Assembly (NCBI GenBank): GCA_025998875.1
Contig: AP024675.1
Span: forward strand, 629,589 to 693,588
Source: Bacteroidota bacterium
GTDB taxonomy: Bacteria; Bacteroidota; Rhodothermia; JANXDC01
DNA length: 64,000 bases
Reading direction: 5' to 3'
Shown: positions 2,336-63,007 of the stretch, one piece after another
Position numbering within the stretch: position 1 is the first letter of the stretch
Layout: each line of letters opens with the position of its first letter
Program-made: the position numbers and the translations under genes
The notes under the pieces: generated by a model
Seen by the model: the letters and a program-made list of their open reading frames with translations, nothing else
Told to the model about the DNA's origin: nothing
Databases searched by the model: none

Positions 2336-2348
2336 CGCTTTCTCCCGG

Positions 2349-11413: not shown

Positions 11414-11555
11414 ACCCGGTAATGCCCGTTGCGGGGTGAAATTACGCCACAACGGCCGCCGATAGCAAACCTCCCCCATTGCCCCGCGGCGATGGGGAGC
11501 CGGATATTTTGGAGGTGCAACTTTCGGGGCTTTTCTGCGAAAAACCTCTCTGTCC

Positions 11556-13622
11556 ATGCCGGTCCGCTACAGCCCCCATATCGGCTGGTTGCTGGGAGCC
11601 CTCCTGCTCAACGGGCTCGTCTTCGGGCTCGATGCCTTCCTGTTGGCCCTGCAGACCGGAGTGGAAACCGGTTTGCACGTTCCGGAGCTGGCCCTGTTGC
11701 GTGGGCTCGCCCTCGTGGCCAGCTATACGGCCCTGTTTGTGTACTTTCACCGACGCTACCAATCCTATCGGCCTGAGCCGCTGGAGGCGCTCTGGACGGT
11801 CCTGCTGGCCGGTCTGGGCCTTCTGCTACTGGCCTATGGCTTCGATGCCCTCTCGGGATCGGTCGAGCACCGGGGTGCGGCGGGCGGGATACGAGGCCTG
11901 CTGCGCGCCCGGGTGTTCGACCTCGGACAGGCGCTCTACACTTTCTGGACGCTGTTCAACCTCCGGGAGCTTGTGCTTTTTAAGCGCACCCTGCGGGCCG
12001 TGCGATACTGGAACGCCATGCTGGTGGTCTTCGCCCTGAGCGCCTTTAGCCTCTTCATGGCCTCCTACCAGCAGGCACCCCACCTGATCGCCCGGATCCT
12101 GGGCTTCGTCGCCATACTGCTCATGATCTGGTGCAGCATGCGCCTGGCCTGGATCGTGTACCTGCCTGCCCGGAAAAAACTGCTCGCGCTGCTGCTGGCG
12201 GGTCTAAACCTGCTCGTCATGGCCGTACTCCTGGGAAGCCAGCTGGGCTTCTGGCCCTCGGAGGAGGTCCGCCGGGAGGCGGGTTGGCTGTACGACTATC
12301 CGCTGGAGATGTTCGGCCTGCTCACGCTCGCCTTCGGTATCCTCTACAATAGCACGACCATCCTGAGCACGCTCTTTCATCTGCCCACTTCTTCCATTTT
12401 CGAACGCCGACAGACGGAGCTCTCCAGCCTGCACAACGTCAGCCGGCTGATCACCGAGGTGTTCGACCCGGAAAAGCTCGTGCGCACGGTCACCACCTCG
12501 GCCGCCGAGGCTGTCGGCGCCCGGGCTGCCTGGCTGGAGGTGCTCGACTGGCAGTCCGGAACCGTCCATCCCCGGCTGGCGGCCTGGTGTGGCATCGAAC
12601 CCGAACAGATCGCACACTGGGTGAACGGAGAGCTCTCCCGTATCGTGCTGGAAAACCGACAGACCGTTGTGCTGCACAGCCTGGAGGGCCGATCCGGATC
12701 CCTGGTGGTCGTGCCCCTCTATGCGCGGCAGGAGCCCATCGGGGTGCTCTATGTGCTCAAAGAGGTCTCCTTCGGCTTCGAGGCGGACGATGTGCTCCTG
12801 CTCCGTACGCTGGCCGACCAGGCGGCGCTCGTGCTGGAAAACGCCCGCCTTTTTACCCTCTCCCTGGAACGAGAAAGACTGAAACGGGAACTGGAGATCG
12901 CCCGACGCATCCAGCAACGCCTCCTGCCTCTGGAACTCCCCCGTTACCCCGGTCTGCACATCAGCGCCCGCGCCATGATGGCCGAAGAGGTCGGAGGCGA
13001 TTACTACGACTTTTACGCCCGCCCGGACGGACGGCTGGCCTTCGCCATCGCCGACGTTTCGGGCAAAGGCATCTCGGCCGCTTTTTACATGGCCGAGCTC
13101 AAAGGCATCTTTCAGGTGCTGGCCAGAGAAAGCCTGCGCCCCGTCGAACTGCTCACGCGCATCAACGAGGCCTTGAGCGCCCATCTGGAGAGCCGGCTTT
13201 TCGTCAGCATGCTCGTCGGATGGATGGATATGCGCACTTTCCGCGTCCACCTGGCCCGGGCCGGACACCCCCCCGCCCTGCTACGCCGGTCCAGTGGAGA
13301 AACCTGCTTTCTGCGCACCCGAGGTCCGGGACTGGGTCTGGTCCGGGATGGCCGATTCAGCAGTCTGGTCGAGGAGTGTGAGCTACAACTCGATCCGGGC
13401 GATCTTTTCCTGCTCTACACCGATGGCCTCATCGAGCTGCGCAACGAGCGAGGAGAGGAATTTGGCTATGAACGCCTGTTCGAGATCGTCCATCAGCACG
13501 GATCCTCGGCCCGGGAACTGGAACATGCCCTGCTGGAAGCCGTCGCCACCCACCGGGGAGCCAACCCGTGGCATGATGATCTAACGCTCGTTATCCTACA
13601 ACGCACCGGAGGGGAGCCATGA
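11556..13622 (+). CDS. membrane sensor PP2C-type phosphatase (RsbU/SpoIIE-like): polytopic N-terminus, GAF, PP2C
   Basis: 688 aa. About 250 N-terminal residues with 6-8 hydrophobic helices, a GAF-like middle region, and a C-terminal PP2C/SpoIIE domain (ARRIQQRLLP...VGGDYYDF...IADVSGKGISAAFYMAELKG...DGLIE). Confidence 0.8.
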   Translation: MPVRYSPHIGWLLGALLLNGLVFGLDAFLLALQTGVETGLHVPELALLRGLALVASYTALFVYFHRRYQSYRPEPLEALWTVLLAGLGLLLLAYGFDALSGSVEHRGAAGGIRGLLRARVFDLGQALYTFWTLFNLRELVLFKRTLRAVRYWNAMLVVFALSAFSLFMASYQQAPHLIARILGFVAILLMIWCSMRLAWIVYLPARKKLLALLLAGLNLLVMAVLLGSQLGFWPSEEVRREAGWLYDYPLEMFGLLTLAFGILYNSTTILSTLFHLPTSSIFERRQTELSSLHNVSRLITEVFDPEKLVRTVTTSAAEAVGARAAWLEVLDWQSGTVHPRLAAWCGIEPEQIAHWVNGELSRIVLENRQTVVLHSLEGRSGSLVVVPLYARQEPIGVLYVLKEVSFGFEADDVLLLRTLADQAALVLENARLFTLSLERERLKRELEIARRIQQRLLPLELPRYPGLHISARAMMAEEVGGDYYDFYARPDGRLAFAIADVSGKGISAAFYMAELKGIFQVLARESLRPVELLTRINEALSAHLESRLFVSMLVGWMDMRTFRVHLARAGHPPALLRRSSGETCFLRTRGPGLGLVRDGRFSSLVEECELQLDPGDLFLLYTDGLIELRNERGEEFGYERLFEIVHQHGSSARELEHALLEAVATHRGANPWHDDLTLVILQRTGGEP

Positions 13623-13990: not shown

Positions 13991-14387
13991 GCTCACCATA
14001 CCGAGCCGTACAGAGGCCCTGGCCCGAGTACGCCGGTTTGTGCGTCGAAAAGCCCTGCGCATGGGCTTCACGGAAGAGGCCGTCGACCAGATCGTGATCG
14101 CCGTCGATGAGGCCTGCTCGAACATCATCCGGCACGCTTACGGGGGAGATCCCGCCCAGCAGATCCAGATCGTCGTCGACACCTATCCAGATCGGCTTGA
14201 GATCACGCTCTCCGACCAAGGACGGCGTTTTGATCCGAGCACATACCGGGAACCCGATCCGCAGAAGCTGGCCCGTTCCGGCCAGCGAGGGGGTCTGGGC
14301 CTGCTCCTCATGCGCCGCCTCATGGACGAGATCCAGTACGACTATCGGGATGAGTTCAACATTGTTCGGCTGATCAAATACCTATGA
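13965..14387 (+). CDS. anti-sigma regulatory factor Ser/Thr kinase (RsbW/SpoIIAB-like, HATPase_c)
   Basis: 140 aa; ...AVDEACSNIIRHAYGG...QGRRFDP...GGLGLLLMRRLMDE is GHKL kinase-like. It overlaps the STAS gene by 26 nt. Confidence 0.8.
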   Translation: MPKPRNRSELTIPSRTEALARVRRFVRRKALRMGFTEEAVDQIVIAVDEACSNIIRHAYGGDPAQQIQIVVDTYPDRLEITLSDQGRRFDPSTYREPDPQKLARSGQRGGLGLLLMRRLMDEIQYDYRDEFNIVRLIKYL

Positions 14388-16066
14388 CCCCACCCCTCTG
14401 GAACGTCCCTCCGCGCTACGATCTGGACTCCCTGCTGGAGACCAGTCGGCTTCTTGTGGGCTCGCTGGATGCGGACTTTATCCTGGACAACCTGCTCCGG
14501 ATCGCCATGGCCAAGGTGCTCACCTCCCGGGGGGTAATCCTGCTCCGCCAATCCGCAAACCGGTTCCGCGTGGCCCGTGCCCGAGGGATTCCGGACTGGA
14601 GTCCGGGAGCCGAACTTGAGCTGCCCGAAGCATGGCCCCCGAAGGATGGCCGCCTGCATCTGCCGGAATCCCTCCGAAAGCGGGGCCTTGTGTCCTGTTT
14701 TCTGCTGCGAAGCGGACAGGGGTTGCTCGGCCTGCTCGGCCTGGGACCCAAGGCGACCGGAGAACCCTACTCCAGCTATGAGGCCCAGTACATCGAGGCG
14801 CTAGCCAACATCACGGCCATGGGGCTGGAGAACGCCTTCGCCGTCAACCGGCTCCGAGAAATGAACCGGACCCTGGACCGACGCGTGCACGAACTGGAAA
14901 CGCTGCTGGATCTGAGTCGGGCGCTCAACAGCACCCTGGATCGAGAGGTCCTGCTCAAGCGGATCGGCTATACGCTCATGGGCCAGCTGCTGGTGGCCCG
15001 GTTTGCGATCCTGTTCCGCCCCCCGAATCGCCCGACAACCGTGTTGCTGGAACGCGGCCTTGCGCAAGCGCTCTCTGCCGAGCTCATCCCGGAAAGCTGG
15101 CTGCAGGAACCCCGTCCCCGCCGCATCGATCCCGACAGTGCGCTGGCCGCCTGGGGGCTGGAATGGATGGTGCCCATCTGGCTTTCCGATGGCCCGCGCG
15201 GGGTGCTCCTGTTGGGCAGTCGTGCCACGGGCGACCCGTTCGAGGAACAGGAGATCCGCTTTCTGGAGGCCGCCGCCCAGCTGGCCGGTATCGCGCTGGA
15301 GAACACCTATTTGTTTGAGGCGCACCTGGAAAAACAGCGCCTGGAGGAGGAACTGCACATCGCCCGACGCATTCAGCAGGGGCTGCTGCCGCGAACCATA
15401 CCCGATATACCGGGCTGCGAACTGGCCGCTTACTTGCACCCCGTGCGTCCGGTGGGGGGAGACTATTACGACGTACTGCCCCTTGAAGGCGGGCGATTCC
15501 TGCTGGCCGTCGCCGATGTGACAGGAAAAGGGGTGCCAGCCGCTCTGCTCATGGCCAACCTGCAGGCTATGTTGCATGTGCTGGCCCCCATTCCCATGTC
15601 TCTTGAAGAGGCCACAGCGCGCATCAACCGCATTATCTGCCACAATACGGATCCAGGTACCTTTATCACGTTCTTCTGGGGGATCCTCAATCCGGCTGAG
15701 CGCACCTTGCAGTATGTCAATGCCGGTCACGTCCCCCCGCTCCTTGTGCGCGCCAACGGCGACATCGAGGAACTCACCACCGGAGGCCTGCTCCTGGGCG
15801 TCATGGCGGAAACCGGAGCCTATGAGAGTCGAACCATCCAGCTACGTACGGGGGACACCCTGCTGCTCTACACCGACGGCCTTACGGAAACGTGCGATCC
15901 ACAGGGAAACTGCTACGATGAGGACCGCCTGCGGGCCACACTGTCCCGTCTGCGCCACGTACCCGCCTCCCTGCTGATCGAAGCGCTTCTCAGCGATGTG
16001 CGCGCATTCAGCGGAAAAGAAGATTTCGACGACGACCTGACCTTGCTTGTCCTGCGCCTTCTGTAG
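14384..16066 (+). CDS. GAF-domain PP2C-type phosphatase (RsbU/RsbP-like), soluble paralog
   Basis: 560 aa; the GAF regions and PP2C motifs (ARRIQQGLLP...VGGDYYDV...VADVTGKGVPAALLMANLQ...DGLTE) are paralogous to the 11556 gene. ATGA overlap with the upstream kinase. Confidence 0.8.
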   Translation: MTPPLWNVPPRYDLDSLLETSRLLVGSLDADFILDNLLRIAMAKVLTSRGVILLRQSANRFRVARARGIPDWSPGAELELPEAWPPKDGRLHLPESLRKRGLVSCFLLRSGQGLLGLLGLGPKATGEPYSSYEAQYIEALANITAMGLENAFAVNRLREMNRTLDRRVHELETLLDLSRALNSTLDREVLLKRIGYTLMGQLLVARFAILFRPPNRPTTVLLERGLAQALSAELIPESWLQEPRPRRIDPDSALAAWGLEWMVPIWLSDGPRGVLLLGSRATGDPFEEQEIRFLEAAAQLAGIALENTYLFEAHLEKQRLEEELHIARRIQQGLLPRTIPDIPGCELAAYLHPVRPVGGDYYDVLPLEGGRFLLAVADVTGKGVPAALLMANLQAMLHVLAPIPMSLEEATARINRIICHNTDPGTFITFFWGILNPAERTLQYVNAGHVPPLLVRANGDIEELTTGGLLLGVMAETGAYESRTIQLRTGDTLLLYTDGLTETCDPQGNCYDEDRLRATLSRLRHVPASLLIEALLSDVRAFSGKEDFDDDLTLLVLRLL

Positions 16067-52388: not shown

Positions 52389-52425
52389 AAAAAAGCGGAT
52401 GAGCGCCGCGCTCATCCGCTTTTTT
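52389..52425. terminator. bidirectional intrinsic terminator (tRNA-Glu/murA on plus; PfPDO-like operon on minus)
   Basis: A6 run, then a 12-bp perfect stem AGCGGATGAGCG-CCG-CGCTCATCCGCT, then a T5 run. Confidence 0.8.
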
Positions 52426-52434
52426 ACTTTGCAT

Positions 52435-53076
52435 TCAGGCTACCGCTCGCTCGATCGCTTCCAGCAGATAAGACTCCGGAACGGCGCCTTCGATGTGCTC
52501 GCGGTCGTTAATTACCGTCTTGGGCACGCCATAGACCTGATATCGGCTGGCCAGATGGGGAAACTCGATGGCCTCTACCATAGAGGCCTGGATGTTCGGA
52601 TTCAGATAGGCGAAGCGGAAAGCGCTCACCACCGCCCGCGGACAATACGGACACGTAGGGGTGACAAATACCTGTAGGTTCACCGGTTTCTGGATCCCGC
52701 GCACCCGTTCGACGATATCCTCGGGCAGATGCGTGTTTCCCGTGGATACAAGCCGGATAGCTTCCAGCAGGCTGGCAAACTCGTATCCCGAGGGAATCCC
52801 GTAGAACCGAATCCCGTAATCGCTTTCCCCCATCACCACGGTGGCCGGTATCTTGTCGATCCCGTAGGAGTTGGCCCGCTGGCGATCGAGCATGAAGTTG
52901 TAGACCTCCAGGGAGATCTGATCAGAAAGTGCGGCGACCTCTTCGAGTAGCTGGCGGGTCTCCCGGCAGTATTCGCACTCCAGCTCCTGGGTGAAGTAGA
53001 CCAGTCGCACCGGGTTTACCAGTCCGGACAGCTCTTGACGTACCAGTTCGCGCTCCCTTTCGCGTAGCAGGGTCAT
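52435..53076 (-). CDS. protein disulfide oxidoreductase, glutaredoxin-like with two thioredoxin folds (PfPDO-like)
   Basis: Two CxxC motifs (CEYC and CPYC) spaced as in Pyrococcus PDO; 213 aa. ATG verified at 53076. Confidence 0.7.
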   Translation of the reverse strand: MTLLRERERELVRQELSGLVNPVRLVYFTQELECEYCRETRQLLEEVAALSDQISLEVYNFMLDRQRANSYGIDKIPATVVMGESDYGIRFYGIPSGYEFASLLEAIRLVSTGNTHLPEDIVERVRGIQKPVNLQVFVTPTCPYCPRAVVSAFRFAYLNPNIQASMVEAIEFPHLASRYQVYGVPKTVINDREHIEGAVPESYLLEAIERAVA

Positions 53077-53093
53077 CGGGGTATCTCCTCTTG

Positions 53094-53444
53094 TTAGTAG
53101 CGTCCATTCTCTACAGGCAATCCGGCCCGACGCCAGGCCAGAATCCCTCCACGGATGTTGTAGACGTTCCGGTAGCCCAGTTGCTGGGCCACCGCCTCGG
53201 CGACCATGGCGGATCGGTTTCCGGAACGACACAGAAACAGGAGCTCCGCCTCCTTATCCGGAGGCAGCCGGGATATATCGAATGCGCTCAGAGGCAGGTG
53301 TAGCGCTCCGGGCACGGCGCCCTGCTCGTGCAACTCCTCCTTTTCCCGCACATCCACCAGCCAGGCGCCTCGCTGAAAACGCGCATAAGCCTCCTGCGGA
53401 GAGAGCTCTTCATACCCCTTTGGGGTCCAGAACCACCCACTCAT
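53094..53444 (-). CDS. single-domain rhodanese-like sulfurtransferase
   Basis: 116 aa; active-site loop CRSGNRS. Confidence 0.8.
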   Translation of the reverse strand: MSGWFWTPKGYEELSPQEAYARFQRGAWLVDVREKEELHEQGAVPGALHLPLSAFDISRLPPDKEAELLFLCRSGNRSAMVAEAVAQQLGYRNVYNIRGGILAWRRAGLPVENGRY

Positions 53445-53995
53445 CTGTATCCTCCTGTGTTGGGTTTACTCTTCCCCTGTTGCCGGGCCAGCAGGCGGGC
53501 CACGGCGCGCTCCAGATAGGGCAGCGCCGACACATCGCGCATCCCGGCCCTGCGGGCCTCGGCCAGCGCCTGCTCGGCAGACAGCCCCTTAAAACGCAGA
53601 TAGCCGTAATAAAGCTGTGCGGACCGATTGCCGGATCGGCAGTGCATAAAGATGGGTCCTGGGCTCTCCTCCAGGGCGCGCACAAAACGCGCCAGCACCT
53701 CCGGGGTAATCGTCTCCGGCCCTCCTACGGGGATGTTCACGTAGCGCAGCCCGAGCCGACGGGCCACCTCGGCCTCATCAAAAGGACGCCGCTCCTCGGG
53801 AAGGCGATTGTCGATCACGGTCCGGTATCCCGCCCTGCTCAGGGCGCGCAACTGCGCCTCCGTGGGCTGCCCACCGCAGGCCAGCCCGGGGCGCAGCAGC
53901 ACCCCATTGGGGATATCCTGAGGCAAGCCAGAATCCTGGACCCCTGTTCCAGCACCGAACACGAACATCAGAATACCGATGAACCACGCGCGCAT
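53441..53995 (-). CDS. DUF442/phosphatase-like (CX5R) sulfur-metabolism accessory protein, putatively exported
   Basis: Signal-peptide-like N-terminus MRAWFIGILMFVFGAGTG, then HCRSGNRS in a PTP-like fold. This domain is commonly fused or adjacent to persulfide dioxygenases (Blh). Confidence 0.55.
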   Translation of the reverse strand: MRAWFIGILMFVFGAGTGVQDSGLPQDIPNGVLLRPGLACGGQPTEAQLRALSRAGYRTVIDNRLPEERRPFDEAEVARRLGLRYVNIPVGGPETITPEVLARFVRALEESPGPIFMHCRSGNRSAQLYYGYLRFKGLSAEQALAEARRAGMRDVSALPYLERAVARLLARQQGKSKPNTGGYR

Positions 53996-54118
53996 AGGGT
54001 TTACCCCGTGTACTTGTGCCCTTTCGATGCAACCGGGTAGCGAAGATGTCATCGGGTTGTGTACTCCGGGGGGAATACGTATTTTCTCCGCGTTTGCCTA
54101 CCTCCTGGGTGGAAGGCT

Positions 54119-54415
54119 ATGAAGCAAAAAGCAGAACAGCTGACCCTTTCGCACATCGAGGATCGAAAGGAAATTCTGCGTCGCCTGGCCCGGATCGAGG
54201 GCCAGATCCGCGCTCTACAGCGTCTGATCCAGGAAGAGGCCGACTGCGCCACAATCATACAGCAGATGATGGCCGCCCGCCAGGCGGTGCATAAAACCTT
54301 TGCCGAGCTGATGGCCCGCCTGCTCACGCGGGAGTGCCTGCTAACGGAACACCTCTCCGAAGAAGAACGCCAGAACCTGGGCCATCTGGCCGATCTGATT
54401 CGCCGTTATCTGTAA
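54119..54415 (+). CDS. CsoR/CstR-family (DUF156) transcriptional repressor with two Cys
   Basis: 98 aa; ...RLARIEGQIRALQRLIQEEADCATIIQQMMAARQAVHKTFAELMARLLTRECLL... (Cys in EADC and RECL). ATG verified at 54119. Confidence 0.7.
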   Translation: MKQKAEQLTLSHIEDRKEILRRLARIEGQIRALQRLIQEEADCATIIQQMMAARQAVHKTFAELMARLLTRECLLTEHLSEEERQNLGHLADLIRRYL

Positions 54416-54463: not shown

Positions 54464-54492
54464 CTTGACTTTTTAGTCGGACCTCTATACTA
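54464..54492 (+). promoter_or_regulatory. sigma70-like promoter plus GGGGGTAT-containing pseudo-palindrome upstream of the rhodanese-MBL gene (coordinates +/-1)
   Basis: TTGACT, 15-17 nt, TATACT/TACTAT. The ATACTATAGGGGGTAT overlap resembles CsoR-type operators. An upstream inverted repeat CGGACAGGTGTCCG lies at about 54420-54434. Confidence 0.4.
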
Positions 54493-54524
54493 TAGGGGGT
54501 ATCCGGTCAGGAGGTCTTCCACCT

Positions 54525-55709
54525 ATGGAATGGAAAACTCAGTTCACCCCCGAGGAAGTGGCCGAGCTGCTGGAACGAGGCGTTGGCTTCGGCGTGCTGG
54601 ACGTACGCAATGAAGAGGAATTCCGGCGCTGGCGCCTGGAGGGGCCAAACACCCCCCAAACCCTGCATATCCCCTACTTTGAGGCGCTGGAGGATGAGGA
54701 GGCCTTCGTCTCTCGCGTAGAGGCCGAGCTGGGTCGGGGGCCCATCCTAGCCATCTGCGCCAAGGGAGGATCATCGGACTGGATCGCCCAGGAGATCCTG
54801 CGGCCCCGGGGCTTTCAGGTCGCGAACATGATCGGGGGCATGGAGGCCTGGGGATCTAGCTATCGCATTCGCCTGCTTCCGGAATCCAAACAGGATACGG
54901 TGCGCATCTGGCAGCTGGATCGCTTCGGCCGGGGGTGCCTGCATTACGTAGTTGCCTCGGAAGGCGAAGCGATCCTTATCGATCCCCCTCGGCATATCGA
55001 GCGCGTACTGGAGCTCCTGTCGCGGGAAGGGCTACAGATCCGGGCCATTCTGGACACGCACGCCCATGCCGATCACATCTCCGGAGGCCCCGCGCTGGCG
55101 GAACGGACCGGCGCTCCTTACTATCTGCATCCCTACGACGGCATCCACCCTATCGACGTGCTTCCGGCTCAGATCCCGTTTGCCTTTCTGCAAGAGGGCA
55201 TGCGCTTTTCGGTGGGCTCGGCCGCCCTAGACGTTCTGCATATACCCGGCCACACGCTAGGCAATACGGCTTTTCTTCTGCAGGGGCAGAAGCGCTACCT
55301 CTTTACGGGGGATAGCCTCTTCATCCAGAGCGTTGCGCGGCCTGATCTGGGCGGTCGGGGGGAGGCGTGGGCGCCTCTGCATTTCCGATCCCTGCGTCGG
55401 CTGCTTCATCTTCCGGCGGATACGATCGTCCTGCCGGGCCATTACGCCTCGGCCGCGCGGGAGCAGCGCGCCGATGGCCTCTTTGCCGCCCCGCTGGGCG
55501 AGTTGCTCAGGAGCAACCCCGATCTGGCTCTGCAAGAGGAGGAAGCCTTTGTTTCCTATATCCTGGCCCACCTTCCGGAGTTTCCCCCGCAGTACGTGGA
55601 TATCAAACGGGTAAACGCCGGGCTCCTGCGACTGGATGAGGAGGGCCTCAACGAACTGGAGCTGGGCAAAAACGTCTGCGCGCTCTCGGGTGCTTATACA
55701 ACATCATAA
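54525..55709 (+). CDS. rhodanese-MBL fusion, persulfide dioxygenase-like (CstB/Blh-like)
   Basis: N-terminal rhodanese with CAKGGSS loop; C-terminal metallo-beta-lactamase fold with HAHADHISGG (HxHxDH). Confidence 0.75.
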   Translation: MEWKTQFTPEEVAELLERGVGFGVLDVRNEEEFRRWRLEGPNTPQTLHIPYFEALEDEEAFVSRVEAELGRGPILAICAKGGSSDWIAQEILRPRGFQVANMIGGMEAWGSSYRIRLLPESKQDTVRIWQLDRFGRGCLHYVVASEGEAILIDPPRHIERVLELLSREGLQIRAILDTHAHADHISGGPALAERTGAPYYLHPYDGIHPIDVLPAQIPFAFLQEGMRFSVGSAALDVLHIPGHTLGNTAFLLQGQKRYLFTGDSLFIQSVARPDLGGRGEAWAPLHFRSLRRLLHLPADTIVLPGHYASAAREQRADGLFAAPLGELLRSNPDLALQEEEAFVSYILAHLPEFPPQYVDIKRVNAGLLRLDEEGLNELELGKNVCALSGAYTTS

Positions 55710-55722
55710 AGGAGGCTCCGCC

Positions 55723-55983
55723 ATGGGGGAGATCGTCGTAGCCAGGGAACTCGACGTCCGCGGCCTACAGTGTCCCATGCCCCTGGTCAACGCACACCGG
55801 GCGATCAAGCAGATCGCCGTGGGCGAGGTGCTCAAAGTGCTGGCCACGGATCGGGGCTCGCTTTTGGACTTTAAGGGCTGGGCGGAAACAGACGACTCCG
55901 TCGAGTTGCTCCAGCAGGAAGAATATACCGACGAGCAAGGACGACGGGTGTACGTGCACTACCTGCGACGGGTAGAACCCTGA
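55723..55983 (+). CDS. tusA: TusA/SirA-like sulfur carrier
   Basis: 86 aa; LQCPMP (CPxP) motif. GGAGG Shine-Dalgarno; ATG verified at 55723. Confidence 0.8.
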   Translation: MGEIVVARELDVRGLQCPMPLVNAHRAIKQIAVGEVLKVLATDRGSLLDFKGWAETDDSVELLQQEEYTDEQGRRVYVHYLRRVEP

Positions 55984-56007: not shown

Positions 56008-56592
56008 ATGGCCGAAGCCATTGCCCAGGATCTGGAGACCCGCCTCCAGGAGCTCACCCAACGCCTGGAAGCGCTGGAGAGCCGCTATGAAAAAGACATG
56101 CGCCGCATCCAGCGGCACCTACCGGAGAACCGGGTGGCGATCATCTGCTTCAGCGGTAATCTGGACAAGGCCATGGCCGCGCTGATCATCGCCACCGGCG
56201 CGGCCTCAATGGGCATGCAGGTCTCGATTTTCTTCACCTTCTGGGGCTTGAGCGTGATCAAAAATGGCGCCCAGCTGCGGGGCAAATCCTTCATGGAAAA
56301 GCTCTTCAGCATCATGCTCCCGGAGAACATGCGCGAGCTCGGCCCCTCTCAGATGAACTTCGGCGGCATTGGCGCGCGTATGATGCGGGCCATTATGCGC
56401 AAAAAGCAGGTTCAGTCCCTCGAGGAGCTCTTCCAGCTGGCCCGTGAGCTGGGAGTTCGCCTGGTGGCCTGCACGATGAGCATGGATGTGATGGGCATCC
56501 GGGCCGAGGAACTGCTTCCCGGCATGGAGCTGGGTGGGGTGGCCACCTACCTGGCCGATGCCTCCAAATCCAAAGTCACGCTGTTTATCTAA
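56008..56592 (+). CDS. DsrE/DsrF-family (DsrE3/COG2210-like) sulfur carrier with N-terminal coiled-coil extension
   Basis: ...RVAIICFSGNLDKAMAALIIATGAASMGMQVSIFFTFWGL...LVACTMSMDVMG (conserved Cys). Confidence 0.65.
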   Translation: MAEAIAQDLETRLQELTQRLEALESRYEKDMRRIQRHLPENRVAIICFSGNLDKAMAALIIATGAASMGMQVSIFFTFWGLSVIKNGAQLRGKSFMEKLFSIMLPENMRELGPSQMNFGGIGARMMRAIMRKKQVQSLEELFQLARELGVRLVACTMSMDVMGIRAEELLPGMELGGVATYLADASKSKVTLFI

Positions 56593-56643: not shown

Positions 56644-58317
56644 ATGAACTATGGTTTCATCATCGATAACCGTAAGTGTATCGGCTGTCATGCTTGCACG
56701 GTGGCCTGCAAGGCGGAGCACGAAATCCCGCTCGGCGTCAACCGCACCTGGGTCAAATACGTCGAAAAGGGGCGCTATCCGAACACGCGGCGCTTGTTTG
56801 CCGTGCACCGGTGCAACCACTGCGCCGAGGCCCCGTGTGTGGAGATCTGCCCCGTAGAGGCGCTCTTTGTGCGCCCCGACGGGATCGTGGATTTCGATAA
56901 CGCCCGCTGCATCGGGTGCAAGTCCTGCATGCAGGCCTGTCCTTATGATGCGCTCTATATCGATCCGGAGACGCACACGGCGGCCAAGTGCAATTTCTGC
57001 GCGCATCGTATTGACCTGGGTCTGGAACCGGCCTGTGTGGTGGTCTGCCCGGAACATGCCATCATCGCCGGGGATCTGGACGATCCCCACTCGGAGATCA
57101 GCCAGCTTCTGGCCCGCGAACAGGTCCAGGTGCGCAAACCGGAAAAGGGCACCCTGCCCAAGCTCTGGTACATCGATGGGGACGAGGCCTCCCTAGATCC
57201 CCTGGCCACCCGGCGAGAGACGGAATACTTCTGGAGCGAACAGGCCACCGGGGTGGGGCATTTTGCCCGCTATGCGGAGATGCGGCAGGCGAACCGGGAT
57301 CCGGATCAGCTCCTCTATCAGCTGGCCGTCTTGCCCTCGGACTGGGCCCGTGCTGAGGCCCGGGTAGCCGAGGAGCTACGCCGTGAAGACGGACAGCGGG
57401 CCATGGGCGATCCCCTGCTCCGGATGCAGGAGGCCGTCTACGGGCAGAGCCCGGCCAGGCGCACCTATGACACCCCCTCGAAAGGGGTGCTCTGGGGATG
57501 GGAGGTTTCCGGATACATCTGGACAAAGGCCATTGCCGCGGGTGCGTTTCTGGTGCCGTTTCTTCTGCAGGATCTGGGCCTTGTCCGACTCGGCCCCGTG
57601 GCGGAATGGGTCGCCTGGGGGGTTGCCCTCCTGTTTTTGTTGCTGACCGGACTGCTATTAATCAAAGACCTGGACCGACCCGATCGGTTTCTGTACGTAT
57701 TGCTTCGCCCTCAGAAGCGTTCCTGGCTCGTCAAGGGCGCCTATATCCTTACCGGCTACGGAGCGGCCCTGGCCCTGTGGGGGGTATCACGCTGGCTGGA
57801 AAGCCCCGAACTGGGTTGGCTGGCCCGCCTGACGGGTTATCTGGGCGCCCTGGGCGCGGCCACATATACGGCCTTTTTGTTTGCTCAGGCCAAGGGGCGG
57901 GACTTCTGGCAGAGCCCCATGCTTGCCCCGCACATGCTTCTGCACGCCCTGCTGGCCGGAGGATCGGTGGGACTGCTCCTGGCCTGGGGTTTCGGCCTAG
58001 ATGCAACCCCCTTCGGCTGGGTTACCGCCTTCTCGGGGGCAGCAGGGCTCCTGATAGTAGCCATAGAGCTGGCTATGCCGCATCCCACACGGGATGCTCA
58101 TCTGGTGGCCCAGATCATCATGCGCGGCTACTATCGCCGGCTGTTCTGGCATACCGTGCTCTGGGGACACCTGCTGCCCGTAGTCGGGCTTTTCCTCGGA
58201 CTCTGGCTCGGTTGGCCTGTGGCCCTGTTGGCCCTGCTGGGCCTGATACTGCTTGTGGCCGTGCTGCCCATCGAGCACCTCTGGGTGCGCGTGCCTCAGC
58301 TCATCCCCCTGGCCTGA
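56644..58317 (+). CDS. fusion of a 4x[4Fe-4S] ferredoxin-type subunit (PsrB/SoeB-like) with an NrfD/PsrC-like polytopic membrane anchor
   Basis: N-terminal about 200 aa with four Cys clusters (CIGCHACTVAC, CNHCAEAPCVEICP, CIGCKSCMQACP, CNFCAHRIDLGLEPACVVVCP). C-terminal about 310 aa with about 8 TM helices. A single uninterrupted frame with a GGAGG Shine-Dalgarno. Confidence 0.7.
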   Translation: MNYGFIIDNRKCIGCHACTVACKAEHEIPLGVNRTWVKYVEKGRYPNTRRLFAVHRCNHCAEAPCVEICPVEALFVRPDGIVDFDNARCIGCKSCMQACPYDALYIDPETHTAAKCNFCAHRIDLGLEPACVVVCPEHAIIAGDLDDPHSEISQLLAREQVQVRKPEKGTLPKLWYIDGDEASLDPLATRRETEYFWSEQATGVGHFARYAEMRQANRDPDQLLYQLAVLPSDWARAEARVAEELRREDGQRAMGDPLLRMQEAVYGQSPARRTYDTPSKGVLWGWEVSGYIWTKAIAAGAFLVPFLLQDLGLVRLGPVAEWVAWGVALLFLLLTGLLLIKDLDRPDRFLYVLLRPQKRSWLVKGAYILTGYGAALALWGVSRWLESPELGWLARLTGYLGALGAATYTAFLFAQAKGRDFWQSPMLAPHMLLHALLAGGSVGLLLAWGFGLDATPFGWVTAFSGAAGLLIVAIELAMPHPTRDAHLVAQIIMRGYYRRLFWHTVLWGHLLPVVGLFLGLWLGWPVALLALLGLILLVAVLPIEHLWVRVPQLIPLA

Positions 58318-58336
58318 GAGAAGGAGGTATTCGCCT

Positions 58337-61225
58337 ATGGCCAAATCCTGGATAGAGCGCGCCGCCGAAGCTCTGCGCCTGATCCCCCGAATCGACTCCA
58401 ACGGAAGTACCCCCCTGCCCCGACTTGAGCCCGGTTCGGGGTTGCGTTCCTACCCCCCGAGGGAGCGCTGGAATCACTGGGAAGAATATGACCCTCGGGC
58501 CTGGCCCCGGAAGCGCAAACGGGCCTACATGCTTGTGCCCACCATCTGTTTTAACTGCGAAGCCGGATGCGGCCTGTTGGCCTATATTGACAAGGAAACC
58601 GGACAGGTGCGCAAACTGGAGGGCAATCCCTACCACCCCGGTTCGCGCGGCCGTAACTGCGCAAAAGGGCCGGCTACGATCAACCAACTCACCGATCCGG
58701 ATCGTATCCTCTATCCTCTGCGCCGCAAAGGCGAGCGAGGATCCGGTCAATGGGAGCGCGTATCCTGGGAAGAAGCCCTGGAGGATATCGCCGCCCGGAT
58801 CCGCCGCGCGCTCGAAGAGGGACGCAACAACGAAATCGTCTACCATGTGGGCCGACCGGGCCACGAGGGATACATGGAACGCGTGCTGGGGGCCTGGAAC
58901 GTAGACGGACATAACAGCCATACGAACATCTGCTCTTCCGGGGCCCGCTTTGGATACGCCATCTGGCAGGGATACGATCGGCCCTCCCCGGATCACGCCA
59001 ATGCCCGCTTTATCCTGCTGCTGAGTTCCCATCTGGAGACGGGCCATTACTTCAACCCCCACGCCCAGCGCATCATCGAGGGCATGATGCGCGGAGCCAA
59101 GCTGGCGGTTATGGACCCCCGGCTCTCGAACACAGCCAGTATGGCCGACTACTGGCTGCCGACCTATCCGGGCTCCGAAGCCGCTGTACTGCTGGCCATG
59201 GCGCGCATCCTGCTCCTGGAGGGTCGATACGATCGGGAATTCCTGGAGCACTGGGTCAACTGGCACGATTACCTCAACGCCCGACATCCCCAGCGACCGC
59301 GCACCTTCGAGGCCTTCATCGAAGCGCTCCTGGAAGAATATGCCCTCTTCACCCCGGAATTCGCCGCCCGGGAGGCCCAGATCGATCCTGAGCTCATCAT
59401 CGCCGTAGCCCGGGAGATCGGCGAGGCCGGATCCCGCTTTGCCACCCACAACTGGCGCTCGGCCTCCAGCGGCAACCTGGGTGGCTGGACTGTGGCGCGC
59501 GCGCTGCATTTTCTCAACGTCCTTACCGGATCGGTCGGCACCTATGGTGGCACCAGCCCGAGCGCCTGGAACAAGTTCAAGCCCATCGTGCCGCATGCCC
59601 CGCCGGCCACCCGATTCTGGAACGAGCTCCATTTCCCCCTGGAGTATCCGCTGGCCCACTACGAGATGAGCTTCCTACTGCCACACTTCCTCAAGGAGGG
59701 GCGCGGCCGGCTGGAGGTTTACTTTACGCGCGTCTTCAATCCCGTATGGACGTATCCGGACGGCTTTTCCTGGATCGAGGTGTTGCGGGATGAATCCAAA
59801 ATCGGCCTGCATGTAGCCCTGACCCCCACGTGGAACGAGACGGCCTACTGGGCCGACTACGTCCTGCCCATGGGACATGCCTCCGAACGACACGATATCG
59901 TCAGCTACGAAACCCATTCCGGCATCTGGATAGGCTTTCGCCAGCCCGTACTGCGCGAAGCGCTTCGCCGGCAGGGCAAACCGGTCCGCTTCACCTACGA
60001 AGCCAACCCCGGAGAAGTCTGGGAAGAGGACGAATTCTGGATTGAGCTCTCCTGGCGTATCGATCCCGAAGGCCGTCTGGGCATCCGGAAGCACTTCGAA
60101 TCCCCCTATCGTGCCGGGGAGAAGATGACTATTGAAGAATACTACCAGTACGTCTTCGAGCACGTGCCCGGCCTTCCGGAAGCGGCCGCCCGGGAAGGGC
60201 TTACCCCCCTGGAATACATGCGCCGCTACGGAGCCTTCGAGGTGAAAAAGCACGTCTACGAGAAACACCTCGATCCGGTGCCCGAAGAGCTGGCCCGCCA
60301 GGCGGAAATCGATCCGGAAACCCATATCGCCTACGTACATACGGACAGCGGGGAGCGACAGGCCATCGGGGTATACTACCAGGGCCAGATCCGCACGGGA
60401 TTTCCTACCCCCACGCGCAAACAGGAGTTCTACTCGCAGACCATGGTCGACTGGGGATGGCCAGAATACGCCATCCCGACCTATATCAAAAGTCATGTGC
60501 ATCCGGAACGGATTAACCGGGACAACAACGAGTTCGTCCTGGTGCCCACGTTCCGTTTGCCCACACTCATCCACACCCGCAGCGGTAACGCCAAGTACCT
60601 GGTGGAGATCTCCAACCGAAACCCGATCTGGATACACACCCGCGATGCGGAGCGCATCGGGGTGAAAACGGGAGACCTGGTGCGAGTCACCACGGAGATC
60701 GGCTACTTCGTCGATCGCGTCTGGGTCACGGAGGCGATTAAACCCGGCGTGGTGGCCTGCTCGCACCATATCGGGCGCTGGCGACGGGAACAGGATCCGC
60801 CGGGCAACCGATGGGCCACCAGCACCGTGCGGATCGAGGAAATCGCGCCCGGTCAGTGGCGCATGCAACAGGTCCGGGGGGTGGAGCCGTTTGTCAGTTC
60901 CGACCCCGACTCCAGGCGCATCTTCTGGCGGGATGGCGGAGTGCATCAGAACATCACGCACCCCGTACACCCGGATCCCATTTCGGGCATGCACTGTTGG
61001 CACCAGTGGTGCCGCATCGAGAAGGCCAGACCGGAGGACCGCTACGGAGACGTGTTCGTGGACACGAACAAATCTTTTGCCGTCTACCGGCAGTGGCTGG
61101 CCATGACGCGCCCGGGTCCGGGTCCCGGAGGACTGCGCCGGCCCCTGTGGCTGAACCGGCCGTTTCGGCCCGCCCCAGAGACCTTCTATGTAACCTCAGA
61201 GGCGCAATCACCGCCAGAGAGCTGA
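58337..61225 (+). CDS. molybdopterin (DMSO-reductase-family) oxidoreductase catalytic subunit without Tat signal (SoeA-like)
   Basis: 962 aa; N-terminal CFNCEAGCG...C [4Fe-4S] motif and the molybdopterin dinucleotide-binding domain pattern. No RRxFLK motif. Strong GGAGG Shine-Dalgarno; ATG verified at 58337. Confidence 0.75.
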   Translation: MAKSWIERAAEALRLIPRIDSNGSTPLPRLEPGSGLRSYPPRERWNHWEEYDPRAWPRKRKRAYMLVPTICFNCEAGCGLLAYIDKETGQVRKLEGNPYHPGSRGRNCAKGPATINQLTDPDRILYPLRRKGERGSGQWERVSWEEALEDIAARIRRALEEGRNNEIVYHVGRPGHEGYMERVLGAWNVDGHNSHTNICSSGARFGYAIWQGYDRPSPDHANARFILLLSSHLETGHYFNPHAQRIIEGMMRGAKLAVMDPRLSNTASMADYWLPTYPGSEAAVLLAMARILLLEGRYDREFLEHWVNWHDYLNARHPQRPRTFEAFIEALLEEYALFTPEFAAREAQIDPELIIAVAREIGEAGSRFATHNWRSASSGNLGGWTVARALHFLNVLTGSVGTYGGTSPSAWNKFKPIVPHAPPATRFWNELHFPLEYPLAHYEMSFLLPHFLKEGRGRLEVYFTRVFNPVWTYPDGFSWIEVLRDESKIGLHVALTPTWNETAYWADYVLPMGHASERHDIVSYETHSGIWIGFRQPVLREALRRQGKPVRFTYEANPGEVWEEDEFWIELSWRIDPEGRLGIRKHFESPYRAGEKMTIEEYYQYVFEHVPGLPEAAAREGLTPLEYMRRYGAFEVKKHVYEKHLDPVPEELARQAEIDPETHIAYVHTDSGERQAIGVYYQGQIRTGFPTPTRKQEFYSQTMVDWGWPEYAIPTYIKSHVHPERINRDNNEFVLVPTFRLPTLIHTRSGNAKYLVEISNRNPIWIHTRDAERIGVKTGDLVRVTTEIGYFVDRVWVTEAIKPGVVACSHHIGRWRREQDPPGNRWATSTVRIEEIAPGQWRMQQVRGVEPFVSSDPDSRRIFWRDGGVHQNITHPVHPDPISGMHCWHQWCRIEKARPEDRYGDVFVDTNKSFAVYRQWLAMTRPGPGPGGLRRPLWLNRPFRPAPETFYVTSEAQSPPES

Positions 61226-61237
61226 GCGCTGGCCGCG

Positions 61238-63007
61238 ATGGGGCATCCCTCGGAAGACCGGATCCATCTGGCCCCGTTTCTGAAGGATCTGCGCGCTTAT
61301 ACGTGGGGCACGTTTCGGATGGACCTGCAGGCGGGCCTCACGGTGGCCGTCTTCGCTGTGCCGCAGGTCATGGCCTATGCTATCCTGGCTGGCCTTCCCC
61401 CTACCTACGGGCTCTATGCGGCTATCACAACCGCAGCCATAGCGGCCCTCTGGGGCAGCTCCCCGTATGTGAACACGGGCCCCACGAACTCAGCCGCCCT
61501 CCTGACGGCAGGCGCGCTGGCCGCCTTCGCCGGCGATCCAGACTTCCTGGGGATCGTGTTCTTTTTTACCCTGCTGACAGGCCTCATCCGGATGGCTCTG
61601 GGCCTGCTGCGGCTGGGCAACCTGATCGATTTCGTACCCGAGTCGGCCTTTCTGGGCTTTACGATGGGCGCCGGCGTGCTCATCGGACTGGGCCAGTTCC
61701 ATCATCTGCTCGGCGTGGAGGCCTCCTCGAACGCGTGGTTCCCCGGGCGCATCTGGGATACGCTCGCCCGCTTTCCGGAAGCCAATCCGTATGCCCTCTC
61801 CATCGGCCTGGGAACAGCCGTTCTGCTTCTCGCCCTGGAACGCTACAACCGGTACTTTCCCGTTGCCCTTGGGGTCATCGGGCTGGGCACGCTGGGAGCC
61901 TGGCTGTGGGCTGAGGGGAAGCTGACCCTGGTGCGGGACGTCAGCCCCATACCGCGACAGCTCCCCCATTGGGAACTGCCCGCACTCCGATTCGATCTGC
62001 TCGACGAGCTCCTGCCTGGCGCGATGGCCGTGGCCCTTCTGGGCTTGATCGAGGCGGTTTCCATCGGCCAGACGCTTGCGCTCAAGCGCGGAGAGCGACT
62101 CAACTTCAATCAGGAATTTTTCGGCCAGGGCCTGAGCCATGTGGTAGCCGCTTTCTTTCAGGGCATTCCGGGTTCGGGCTCCTTTAGCCGTTCGGCCCTC
62201 ATCGAGCAAGCCGGAGGACAGACCCGCTTTGCCAATGTGGCCTATGCGGCCTGGATCGCTCTGGCTGTGCTCACGATAGCCCCCCTGCTGGAACGCATCC
62301 CGATCGCCTCGCTGGCTGGCTTATTGCTCTACATCGGTTATCGGCTCATCGACCTGCGTCGGCTCAAGCAGACATGGGCCATCTCGCGCTCCGATACCCT
62401 GGTGCTCGGCATCACGTTTCTCGTCACCGTGGGCTATCGAATCGAACTGGGCATCTTCTCCGGACTCCTTGTCGCCCTGATCATGTTTCTACGCCGGGCC
62501 CGTATCCTGCACCTGTTTGAGCTGCTCCCCCAGCAGGGGGGATCGTTCGCAGAGGTATCCTACCTGCCCGATCGAACCCACGAGCCCAGCGGACTGGTGG
62601 CCCTGGGCGTCTATGGGGACCTGTTTTTCGCCGTCGCCCAGGAATTGCGCACGCAACTACAGCAGATCGTGGAACTGCAGAAGCCACGCGTGATCGTGCT
62701 GCGCACCCGAGGCGCCCGCTCGATCGATTACTCCTGCTGGAACGCGCTCTTCGAGTTCGCTACATACTTCCACCGCCGAGGGGGCCGGCTTGTGCTTGTG
62801 GGCCTGCGGGAAGACTATTGGCGCATCATCCGGGATGCCGGCATGGATTCCGTACTACCCCCGCAACAGCTCTACCCAGCAGGCCATTCCCTGCTGGCCT
62901 CCTTTCAAGGCGCGCTGCGGGACTGGTTGCCCCGCGTCGATGCGGAGACGCTTTCCCCCGCCTGGCGGGCCTATCGGGATGCGCTCGTGGCCTCGACGAC
63001 CTCTTGA
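61238..63007 (+). CDS. SulP-family anion (sulfate) permease with C-terminal STAS domain
   Basis: ...AVPQVMAYAILAGLPPTYGLYAA... SulP signature; about 11 TM helices plus STAS. Confidence 0.85.
   Translation: MGHPSEDRIHLAPFLKDLRAYTWGTFRMDLQAGLTVAVFAVPQVMAYAILAGLPPTYGLYAAITTAAIAALWGSSPYVNTGPTNSAALLTAGALAAFAGDPDFLGIVFFFTLLTGLIRMALGLLRLGNLIDFVPESAFLGFTMGAGVLIGLGQFHHLLGVEASSNAWFPGRIWDTLARFPEANPYALSIGLGTAVLLLALERYNRYFPVALGVIGLGTLGAWLWAEGKLTLVRDVSPIPRQLPHWELPALRFDLLDELLPGAMAVALLGLIEAVSIGQTLALKRGERLNFNQEFFGQGLSHVVAAFFQGIPGSGSFSRSALIEQAGGQTRFANVAYAAWIALAVLTIAPLLERIPIASLAGLLLYIGYRLIDLRRLKQTWAISRSDTLVLGITFLVTVGYRIELGIFSGLLVALIMFLRRARILHLFELLPQQGGSFAEVSYLPDRTHEPSGLVALGVYGDLFFAVAQELRTQLQQIVELQKPRVIVLRTRGARSIDYSCWNALFEFATYFHRRGGRLVLVGLREDYWRIIRDAGMDSVLPPQQLYPAGHSLLASFQGALRDWLPRVDAETLSPAWRAYRDALVASTTS

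Follow-up and report, generated by a model that had tools for sequence, protein, structure and literature searches.

The window analysed here is the whole 64,000-nucleotide stretch taken from contig AP024675.1 of a Bacteroidota bacterium (assembly GCA_025998875.1, positions 629,589 to 693,588 of the forward strand). Two adjacent genes towards its right end encode the proteins that are the subject of this work: a molybdopterin-dependent catalytic subunit (the A subunit) and, just before it, an electron-transfer protein fused to its membrane anchor (BC, the B and C subunits in a single polypeptide). The A subunit is predicted to bind a molybdenum-bis(pyranopterin guanine dinucleotide) cofactor (Mo-bisPGD) and carries no signal for the twin-arginine translocation (Tat) or Sec pathways. 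The features of the pair are as follows, with lengths in amino acids (aa).

56644..58317, + strand: electron-transfer and anchor subunit, 557 aa, a B-C fusion; Pfam Fer4_11 at residues 51-144 and NrfD at residues 280-514.
58321..58327, + strand: Shine-Dalgarno sequence AAGGAGG, 9 nt upstream of the ATG at 58337, read directly from the sequence.
58337..61225, + strand: Mo-bisPGD catalytic subunit, 962 aa, the putative PSRLC3/SoeA-type "A" subunit; Pfam Molybdop_Fe4S4, Molybdopterin and Molydop_binding; no Tat or Sec signal.
58337..58531, + strand: conserved N-terminal extension, residues 1-65, with an amphipathic helix and a "YPPxExW..W..Y/E..WP" box; conserved in the 120 closest homologues.
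58547..58660, + strand: motif of the FS0 [4Fe-4S] cluster, C71-x2-C74-x3-C78 ... C108; the four Cys are invariant in an alignment of 87 A subunits.
58931..58933, + strand: Cys199, predicted Mo ligand, in the invariant motif GHNSHTNxCS; aligned with Cys residues of PsrA and ArrA.

The credible start of the open reading frame ending at 61225 is the ATG at position 58337, which follows a strong ribosome-binding site and the stop of the upstream gene at 58317. The frame is closed by an in-frame stop at 58244-58246, 91 nt upstream of this ATG. The only other in-frame start, a TTG at 58253, lies within the preceding gene and would add 28 codons (MWPCCPSSTSGCACLSSSPWPERRRYSP). An RRR triplet is present in this stretch, followed by no hydrophobic h-region (15-aa Kyte-Doolittle means not above 0.06). 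Given the stop, and a sole alternative start that is situated inside the preceding gene and lacks an h-region, a hidden upstream start with a Tat leader was rejected. A preliminary description of this DNA had named such a start among the observations that could overturn it, and none exists. The same description reported no RRxFLK-type motif ahead of the CX2CX3C...C cluster. Scanning of the N-terminus for this motif upstream of the Fe-S cluster likewise gave none, and the highest 15-aa mean hydrophobicity before the first Fe-S cysteine was 1.22, located over the FS0 cysteines themselves. The A subunit has neither a twin-arginine motif nor a hydrophobic leader, as the motif and hydropathy readings agree.

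The leaderless state is conserved. A comparison with the 120 closest database homologues, 70-89% identical to the A subunit, revealed no Tat (RR) leader at any N-terminus (0/120). All except one (119/120) begin directly at a conserved leaderless N-terminal segment of approximately 65 aa; the exception, P0096, shows about 40 additional aa, which are not of the Tat type and look like a mis-called start. Furthermore, 91 related loci were read from stop to stop for Tat-like leaders on both the A and B subunits, and no valid leader was present on either. The single match to the regular expression, at locus L007, lies upstream of the called start of that gene. Because the 120 homologues and the 91 loci are likewise leaderless, while the controls (Salmonella PhsA, E. 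coli DmsA, an Azoarcus protein, and proteins P0126, P0142 and P0152) carry RR leaders, the missing leader is no annotation accident.

In the place where relatives have their Tat leader, the A subunit has the extension formed by residues 1-65. The consensus of this extension in the closest homologues is an "IExxAExLxxIP" amphipathic helix followed by a "YPPPExWDxWxEYxxxxWP" box. The "YPPxExW" box is also found in Tat-dependent relatives, and the helix is missing in some members of the family, namely those of Thermomicrobium, Rhodococcus and Myxococcota. The idea that the helix is a vestigial Tat leader or a NarG-like chaperone handle is unsupported, because the helix is patchy in the family and TorD/NarJ-like genes occur near only 4 of approximately 90 family loci.

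The partner encoded at 56644-58317 is composed of an N-terminal four-cluster ferredoxin, a linker of about 80-100 aa and an eight-helix NrfD domain with a predicted N-in topology, the number of helices being deduced from family-averaged hydropathy. It too lacks a leader: the first cluster motif starts at residue 12, and the alignments with TtrB, NrfC and DsrO begin at residues ~38-44 of these proteins, past their leaders. The loops of the anchor are very asymmetrical in charge, with 13 Lys+Arg on the Fe-S side against 1 on the opposite side. The same bias was observed in 76 of 76 family sequences (means of 11.3 and 0.6, respectively). In the homologous loops of the Tat-dependent relatives L099, L010 and L011, the corresponding numbers are 4/4, 2/4 and 4/11. 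Since positively charged loops are expected inside, the 13:1 excess places the Fe-S domain, and with it the Mo subunit, on the cytoplasmic side of the membrane. These data support a model in which the Fe-S and Mo subunits face the cytoplasm and the anchor is inverted relative to that of the exported relatives. The difference between the window anchor and those of L099, L010 and L011 resembles a topology inversion through re-charging of loops 2-3, 4-5 and 6-7. The leaderless Fe-S subunit with an apparently inverted NrfD anchor (13:1; 76/76) agrees with the expectation for SoeC, as SoeAB were described as located on the N side with SoeC predicted to be inverted (Calisto and Pereira, PMC8076601). 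The cytoplasmic location that the preliminary description had predicted for the catalytic subunit is therefore reinforced by its leaderless, NrfD-fused partner and by a charge bias that is lost or reversed in the Tat-dependent relatives.

As in SoeA, the A subunit is a leaderless Mo-bisPGD protein whose N-terminus carries a Cys4 FS0 motif; its FS0 is of the all-Cys C-x2-C-x3-C type. In alignments, Cys199 falls opposite the Mo-ligand Cys173 of Thermus thermophilus PsrA and its counterpart in ArrA, and Arg374 opposite PsrA Arg332; both are invariant in the alignment of 87 sequences. A Cys ligand of Mo is common to the Psr/Phs/Ttr reductases and is non-discriminating. The comparison of active-site residues that had been proposed thus identified the probable ligand, and did not separate the A subunit from the reductases. 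In the NCBIfam scan no model reached its cut-off and no SoeA model was matched. The best matches were DmsA/YnfE (183 bits for a cut-off of 777.7) and PhsA (182.8 for 694), ahead of TtrA (113.2 for 1750) and NarG (28.7 for 1084). The traits of periplasmic Psr/Phs/Ttr enzymes, a score above the curated PhsA or TtrA cut-off and a twin-arginine leader, are both absent. NarG chains of the PDB matched with an expectation value (E) of 3e-4 over approximately 85 residues. An AlphaFold (AF2) model of the A subunit had a predicted local distance difference test score (pLDDT) of 85.5, and the nearest solved folds were Shewanella ArrA and T. thermophilus PsrA, with target-normalised template-modelling scores (TM-scores) of 0.77-0.78 at 18-23% identity. 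By its sequence and modelled fold, the A subunit belongs to the Psr/Arr branch, not to the NarG/type II branch. The "NarG-like orientation" put forward earlier is retained as far as the inward orientation is concerned, and kinship with NarG in sequence or fold (28.7 bits; top folds ArrA and PsrA) is not.

The family was delimited by a genome scan with one genome per species, in which at least 595 matched stretches encode relatives; the best 80 of these, all at least 61% identical to the window protein, were examined as loci. The two-gene BC-A module is 55-89% identical across a family that extends to more than 600 species from a dozen phyla or more, haloarchaea included. Members were found in Bacteroidota (Saprospiraceae and Flavobacteriaceae among them), Chlorobium, Calditrichota, KSB1, Planctomycetota, Acidobacteriota, Chloroflexota, Myxococcota and proteobacterial metagenome-assembled genomes (MAGs), as well as in Thermomicrobium roseum, on plasmid pRHL3 of Rhodococcus jostii and on haloarchaeal plasmids. 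The window and all 90 related loci have the order BC then A, and a B-C fusion was present in 76 of 79 family loci. In a neighbour-joining tree, the Tat-less proteins formed a core clade with a bootstrap value of 80%, within which the window protein grouped with those of Chlorobium, Calditrichota and Bacteroidota (98%). Support for the superclade as a whole was 100%, and it was separate from the Psr/Phs-like proteins. Its basal members include Tat-dependent enzymes of 36-48% identity, with the order B-C-A and a gene for a TorD/NarJ-type chaperone. In this phylogenetic placement, a check suggested at the outset, the superclade stands apart from Psr/Phs-like proteins, and the nearest relatives outside the Tat-less family are Tat-exported. 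A 41%-identical representative, P0162, was uninformative, as its gene stands alone and is broken into fragments in a long-read assembly.

Several observations were made on individual members. The haloarchaeal megaplasmids (L012, H3 and H5-H7, from Natrinema, Halomarina and Halomicrococcus) and a euryarchaeote MAG (L089) carry fused BC followed by A at 56-62% identity to the window protein, and the haloarchaeal copies point to a putative transfer between domains. Protein P0125 (1220 aa, 49% identity) has its FS0 cysteines replaced ("TLVPTAAGGHPNACGLLAY") and may be a cofactor-degenerate paralogue. No family-specific model was found in Pfam or NCBIfam. Public MAG records of members (P0002, P0015, P0118, P0331, P0334, P0372 and P0387) bear the name "formate dehydrogenase" or, in IMG, "anaerobic selenocysteine-containing dehydrogenase".

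In the window, the pair belongs to a putative operon with the order CsoR-family repressor, rhodanese-persulfide dioxygenase (PDO), TusA, DsrE2-like protein, fused BC, A and SulP/STAS transporter. Three further genes, encoding DUF442-like, rhodanese and thioredoxin-fold proteins, are divergent from it. The neighbouring features are listed below.

52435..53232, - strand: thioredoxin-fold protein disulfide oxidoreductase; NCBIfam TIGR02187, 283.6 bits for a cut-off of 185.
53094..53444, - strand: single-domain rhodanese; Pfam Rhodanese, E = 2.5e-16.
53441..54052, - strand: protein with a DUF442/TIGR01244-like sulfur transferase domain; Pfam BLH_phosphatase, NCBIfam TIGR01244 below cut-off.
54119..54415, + strand: CsoR/RcnR/FrmR-family repressor, candidate persulfide sensor (CstR-like); Pfam Trns_repr_metal, PDB matches to FrmR, CsoR and 7mq1/7mq3 chains.
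54525..55709, + strand: rhodanese and metallo-beta-lactamase fusion, CstB/Blh-type persulfide dioxygenase; Pfam Rhodanese and Lactamase_B, weak NCBIfam matches to Blh and GloB.
55720..55983, + strand: TusA-family sulfur carrier; Pfam TusA, E = 5e-17.
56008..56592, + strand: DsrE2-like sulfur carrier (DrsE_2 family); PF13686, E = 1e-55, NCBIfam DsrE2 98.9 bits, below cut-off.
61238..63007, + strand: SulP/STAS anion transporter, proposed sulfate exit; Pfam Sulfate_transp, E = 1e-88, plus STAS.

The regulator encoded at 54119-54415 possesses two Cys 30 residues apart and has Leu in place of the His that serves as a copper ligand, a pattern more in keeping with a putative persulfide sensor of the CstR type than with a copper sensor. 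A similar regulator is situated beside the module in locus L001 and in Thermomicrobium roseum. A sigma-70-like promoter match was seen at 54465-54493, directly before the dioxygenase gene.

The synteny is the same in an 89%-identical MAG. Elsewhere the module adjoins PDO, sulfide:quinone oxidoreductase (SQR) with DUF1641, SulP/TauE, YeeE-type carriers, ArsR/CsoR-type regulators and Mrp/NBP35; among these, PDO, SQR, SulP, YeeE-type carriers and ArsR/CstR-type regulators were seen beside it in Bacteroidota, Myxococcota, Rhodococcus pRHL3 and Thermomicrobium. The neighbours were counted in the 55 family loci flanked by 5 kb or more in each direction, using single-sequence phmmer queries that probably undercount sulfur genes. 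Within approximately 6 kb, PDO was present in 35% of these loci, SulP or TauE in 40%, TusA or DsrE2 in ~13-15%, and at least one sulfur gene in 60%. The fit with cytoplasmic TusA, DsrE and persulfide dioxygenase genes, which the preliminary description had pointed out in the window, is strengthened by this recurrent linkage to PDO and SulP/TauE across the family. No TorD-type chaperone gene lies beside the window module, unlike the situation in the Tat-dependent sisters.

A gene for an Mrp/NBP35-type Fe-S carrier is located downstream of or near the Mo subunit gene in actinobacterial, haloarchaeal and alphaproteobacterial loci (L009 at 9799-10968 in R. jostii pRHL3, L012 at 10011-11171 in Natrinema halophilum, and L005 at 2216-3301), and it may be a dedicated maturation factor. 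Within the window, a perfect hairpin with a 17-bp stem and flanking A and T runs, at 52389-52425 between the convergent murA-like and thioredoxin-fold genes, is likely a bidirectional terminator. Two neighbouring genes at 11466-13619 and 14354-16063 encode GAF and SpoIIE (PP2C phosphatase) domains. The rest of the window before 50 kb is housekeeping-like, with RNase Y, PheT, ThrS, transketolase and glutamine synthetase.

The closest described relative of this module is the PSRLC3-type complex of green sulfur bacteria rather than the textbook SoeABC, and the family is thus an already described one. PSRLC3, for which PMC9324843, PMC6338057 and PMC5473276 cite Frigaard and Bryant (2008) and Gregersen et al. 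(2011), is regarded as an alternative, inferred sulfite-oxidising system of two genes (PMC5473276, PMC6338057, PMC9324843). Among the best 80 of the at least 595 relatives, four Chlorobium/Chlorobiaceae loci encode proteins with 66-67% identity to the window A protein, and the homologue of Prosthecochloris aestuarii DSM 271 is 77% identical to that of Chlorobium sp. N1. The window, Chlorobium sp. N1 and P. aestuarii share the arrangement of two genes, fused FeS-NrfD then Mo subunit, both without a signal peptide, and the window also has DsrE2 and TusA neighbours in common with green sulfur bacteria. The host of the window is, however, non-phototrophic and Bacteroidota-like, and its module lies within a cst/BigR-like operon (CstR-like repressor, rhodanese-PDO, SulP) instead of beside TauE. 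By sequence comparison, the window pair is orthologous to the two-gene green-sulfur complex, and its equation with "PSRLC3" relies on the published description, which has two genes and a cytoplasmic location, not on locus tags. In the green-sulfur loci L102 (P. aestuarii), L051, L053, L054 and L083, the order is BC, A, TauE and DsrE2, with DUF1634 in P. aestuarii and TusA in Chlorobium. This TauE/DsrE2 sub-cluster is conserved and distinct from the PDO/SulP context of the Bacteroidota.

The sulfite:quinone oxidoreductase SoeABC is known from Allochromatium vinosum, Aquifex aeolicus and Ruegeria pomeroyi (Dahl et al. 2013 and Boughanemi et al. 2020, cited in PMC8076601). As published descriptions have it, the likeness covers all three parts of a cytoplasm-facing complex: the Mo-bisPGD subunit, which bears FS0 near its N-terminus, the ferredoxin with four clusters, and the NrfD anchor, which lacks haem and has a predicted inverted topology relative to Psr/Dms/Ttr anchors. 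Both systems are linked to TusA, DsrE and rhodanese genes; soeABC is associated with rhd-tusA-dsrE in Acidithiobacillus (PMC6335251). In distribution the two differ. A KEGG-based survey lists SoeC only in Proteobacteria, Clostridia and Aquificae (PMC8076601), whereas the BC-A family spans Bacteroidota, Chlorobiota, Chloroflexota, Actinomycetota, Myxococcota, haloarchaea and others. In a published tree with PSRLC3 among its branches, an enzyme from a MAG of the FCB group is counted as SoeA (PMC9324843).

T. thermophilus PsrABC (PDB 2vpw/2vpz) and Shewanella ArrAB (6cz7) resemble the window proteins in fold, Cys Mo ligand and FS0, and Psr also in its NrfD-type anchor. They are Tat-exported and periplasmic, whereas the window A subunit is leaderless and ~200 aa longer, and the charge bias of its anchor is opposite. 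The closest enzymes outside the family, at 31-48% identity, are Tat-dependent B-C-A-TorD systems (P0126/L099, P0152, P0142, L010 of Sulfurovum mangrovi and L011 of Azoarcus KH32C). They share the B-C-A order and the "YPPxExW" box before FS0, and P0126, P0142 and P0152 fall in the same 100% superclade. They differ in having RRxFLK leaders, separate B and C, a TorD/NarJ-type chaperone and an extra ferredoxin gene, and in lacking the positive-inside bias on the side homologous to the Fe-S side. Their gene order is (cytochrome c), FeS, NrfD, Mo subunit (~880-1120 aa), TorD/NarJ-like and extra 4Fe-4S protein; the S. mangrovi plasmid copy (L010) is frameshifted, and L011 is carried by pAZKH of Azoarcus sp. 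KH32C.

The surrounding operon has its own counterparts. The cst operon of Staphylococcus aureus and the BigR-blh operons of Xylella and Agrobacterium, which serve to detoxify persulfide, likewise comprise a CsoR-family (CstR-like) regulator, a rhodanese-PDO fusion, TusA/DsrE carriers, DUF442 and an anion exporter. To our knowledge, these operons contain no molybdoenzyme and export sulfite or thiosulfate. The window operon differs by the addition of a predicted step from sulfite to sulfate.

We propose, with a probability of about 0.68, that the products of 56644-58317 and 58337-61225 form a membrane-bound, cytoplasm-facing sulfite:quinone oxidoreductase made of two polypeptides, similar to PSRLC3 and SoeABC. 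Persulfide dioxygenases yield sulfite, and oxidation by the molybdoenzyme of the sulfite from the adjacent, putative persulfide dioxygenase is the simplest interpretation. In this model, TusA and DsrE2 would shuttle sulfane sulfur, and the rhodanese-persulfide dioxygenase encoded just upstream would supply the sulfite. Sulfite would be oxidised to sulfate at the Cys-ligated Mo-bisPGD site, and the electrons would travel by way of FS0 and the four clusters of BC to a quinone site within its NrfD part. The downstream SulP carrier would export the sulfate, and the CstR-like repressor would control expression of the operon. The step would probably be a detoxifying input of electrons to the quinone pool; it is itself probably no coupling site, because the release of substrate protons and the uptake of protons by quinone would both occur on the N side. 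The sulfite-oxidising, SoeA-like role favoured in the preliminary description is thus the best-supported function, through the PSRLC3-type orthologues and the linkage to PDO and SulP/TauE, from which we infer the activity.

A number of points weigh against this proposal. In the literature, no purification or knock-out of any member of the BC-A family was found, and the published assignment of PSRLC3 to sulfite is itself an inference. The family was likened to A. vinosum SoeA (D3RNN8) and A. aeolicus aq_1234 by description, not by sequence. B and C are fused in the window and the order is BC-A, whereas soeABC consists of three genes in the order A-B-C. Because no Tat-less relative with the A-B-C order was present among the 150 best representatives clustered at 50%, the characterised SoeA may be no closer to the family than generic Psr-like proteins are. 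The Aquifex enzyme was reportedly first described as a sulfur reductase, so that the direction and substrate in vitro are not guaranteed. No recognisable sulfur gene lies nearby in 40% of the 55 fully flanked loci (a proportion that is probably overcounted), and phmmer detected no SQR gene in the 64-kb window. A separate search of plasmids by tblastn, with three settings, returned only the family, its Tat-dependent relatives, Dms/Ynf/Phs/Ttr enzymes, nitrate reductases and formate dehydrogenases, and no soeABC; on inspection, none of the candidate plasmid loci from Caballeronia, Rhodobacter xanthinilyticus, Pseudohalocynthiibacter, Agrobacterium vitis and Bradyrhizobium proved to be soeABC.

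The same observations can be read in other ways. The complex could face the cytoplasm and work as a quinol-oxidising reductase of intracellular polysulfide or persulfide, thiosulfate or tetrathionate, as might be suggested by the nearest structures and best curated models, which are those of reductases (PsrA, ArrA, PhsA and DmsA), and by a Mo ligand Cys as in PsrA. The TusA, DsrE2 and rhodanese neighbours, which handle sulfane sulfur, and the YeeE/PmpAB-type sulfur-compound carriers at some loci would also suit such an enzyme. However, an inward respiratory reductase makes little sense in aerobes or phototrophs such as Saprospiraceae, Flavobacteriaceae, Rhodococcus, Thermomicrobium, haloarchaea and green sulfur bacteria. 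The commonest neighbours are a sulfite-producing dioxygenase and SulP/TauE anion carriers, and sulfite oxidation is what the literature infers for the green-sulfur-bacterial orthologues, so that we regard a reductase as unlikely. The position of TusA and DsrE2 directly beside the module in the window, L001, Rhodococcus, a Marinimicrobia MAG and Chlorobium suggests another option, the oxidation of a different sulfur substrate (thiosulfate, or a sulfane or sulfonate carried on TusA or DsrE2) by a functionally new cytoplasmic sulfur dehydrogenase that is no equivalent of SoeABC. The family has no curated model or characterised member, and resembles SoeA by description only, which leaves room for such an enzyme. 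Yet TusA or DsrE2 are far less frequent in the fully flanked loci (~13-15%) than PDO (35%) or SulP/TauE (40%), and a tusA/dsrE linkage is already known for the sulfite enzyme soeABC. The invariant Arg374 could be cited on the same side, but it is shared with PsrA and hence does not discriminate. We find this option unlikely as well.

A third reading is that the A subunit is exported after all, through a mis-called start, by hitch-hiking on its partner or by a non-Tat route, and is an ordinary periplasmic reductase of the Psr/Phs/Ttr type. Tat export to the periplasm is indeed the rule both for the closest non-family relatives (36-48% identity) and for the enzymes with the nearest solved structures, and an RRR triplet does occur in the 28 codons upstream of the ATG at 58337. 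Against this stand the stop at 58244-58246 and an upstream stretch that lies inside the preceding gene without an h-region, a leaderless partner that forms one chain with a membrane domain, whose positive-inside bias of 13:1 places it in the cytoplasm, the leaderless state kept in 120 plus 91 relatives, and the lack of a TorD-type chaperone gene with the window module, unlike in the Tat-dependent sisters. Export can be given almost no weight. A further question concerns ancestry. It is conceivable, albeit doubtful, that the BC-A family is a lineage separate from SoeABC, derived from a Tat-exported B-C-A-TorD enzyme turned inside-out, and hence a second, independent origin of an inward-facing sulfur molybdoenzyme. 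Such a history would have involved the loss of the leader, the fusion of B to C and the re-charging of the anchor loops, and the substrate of the enzyme may then be free sulfite, thiosulfate or sulfur bound to a carrier.

None of these findings overturns current understanding; the family is under-annotated. Sulfite-oxidation potential is probably under-counted in genome surveys, because a widespread conserved family without a curated profile is recorded as "molybdopterin-dependent oxidoreductase" or, wrongly, as "formate dehydrogenase". The two sister clades, one leaderless and one Tat-dependent, would offer a clean natural case of a flip in the topology of a membrane anchor. In the bacterium from which the window derives, persulfide would appear to be converted to sulfate, and the sulfate exported, by a cytoplasmic route for which this operon supplies every step. 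If the proposed sulfite oxidation is true, many aerobic heterotrophs, among them Saprospiraceae, Flavobacteriaceae, Rhodococcus, Thermomicrobium and haloarchaea, would oxidise sulfide-derived sulfur completely to sulfate, and not excrete it as sulfite or thiosulfate.

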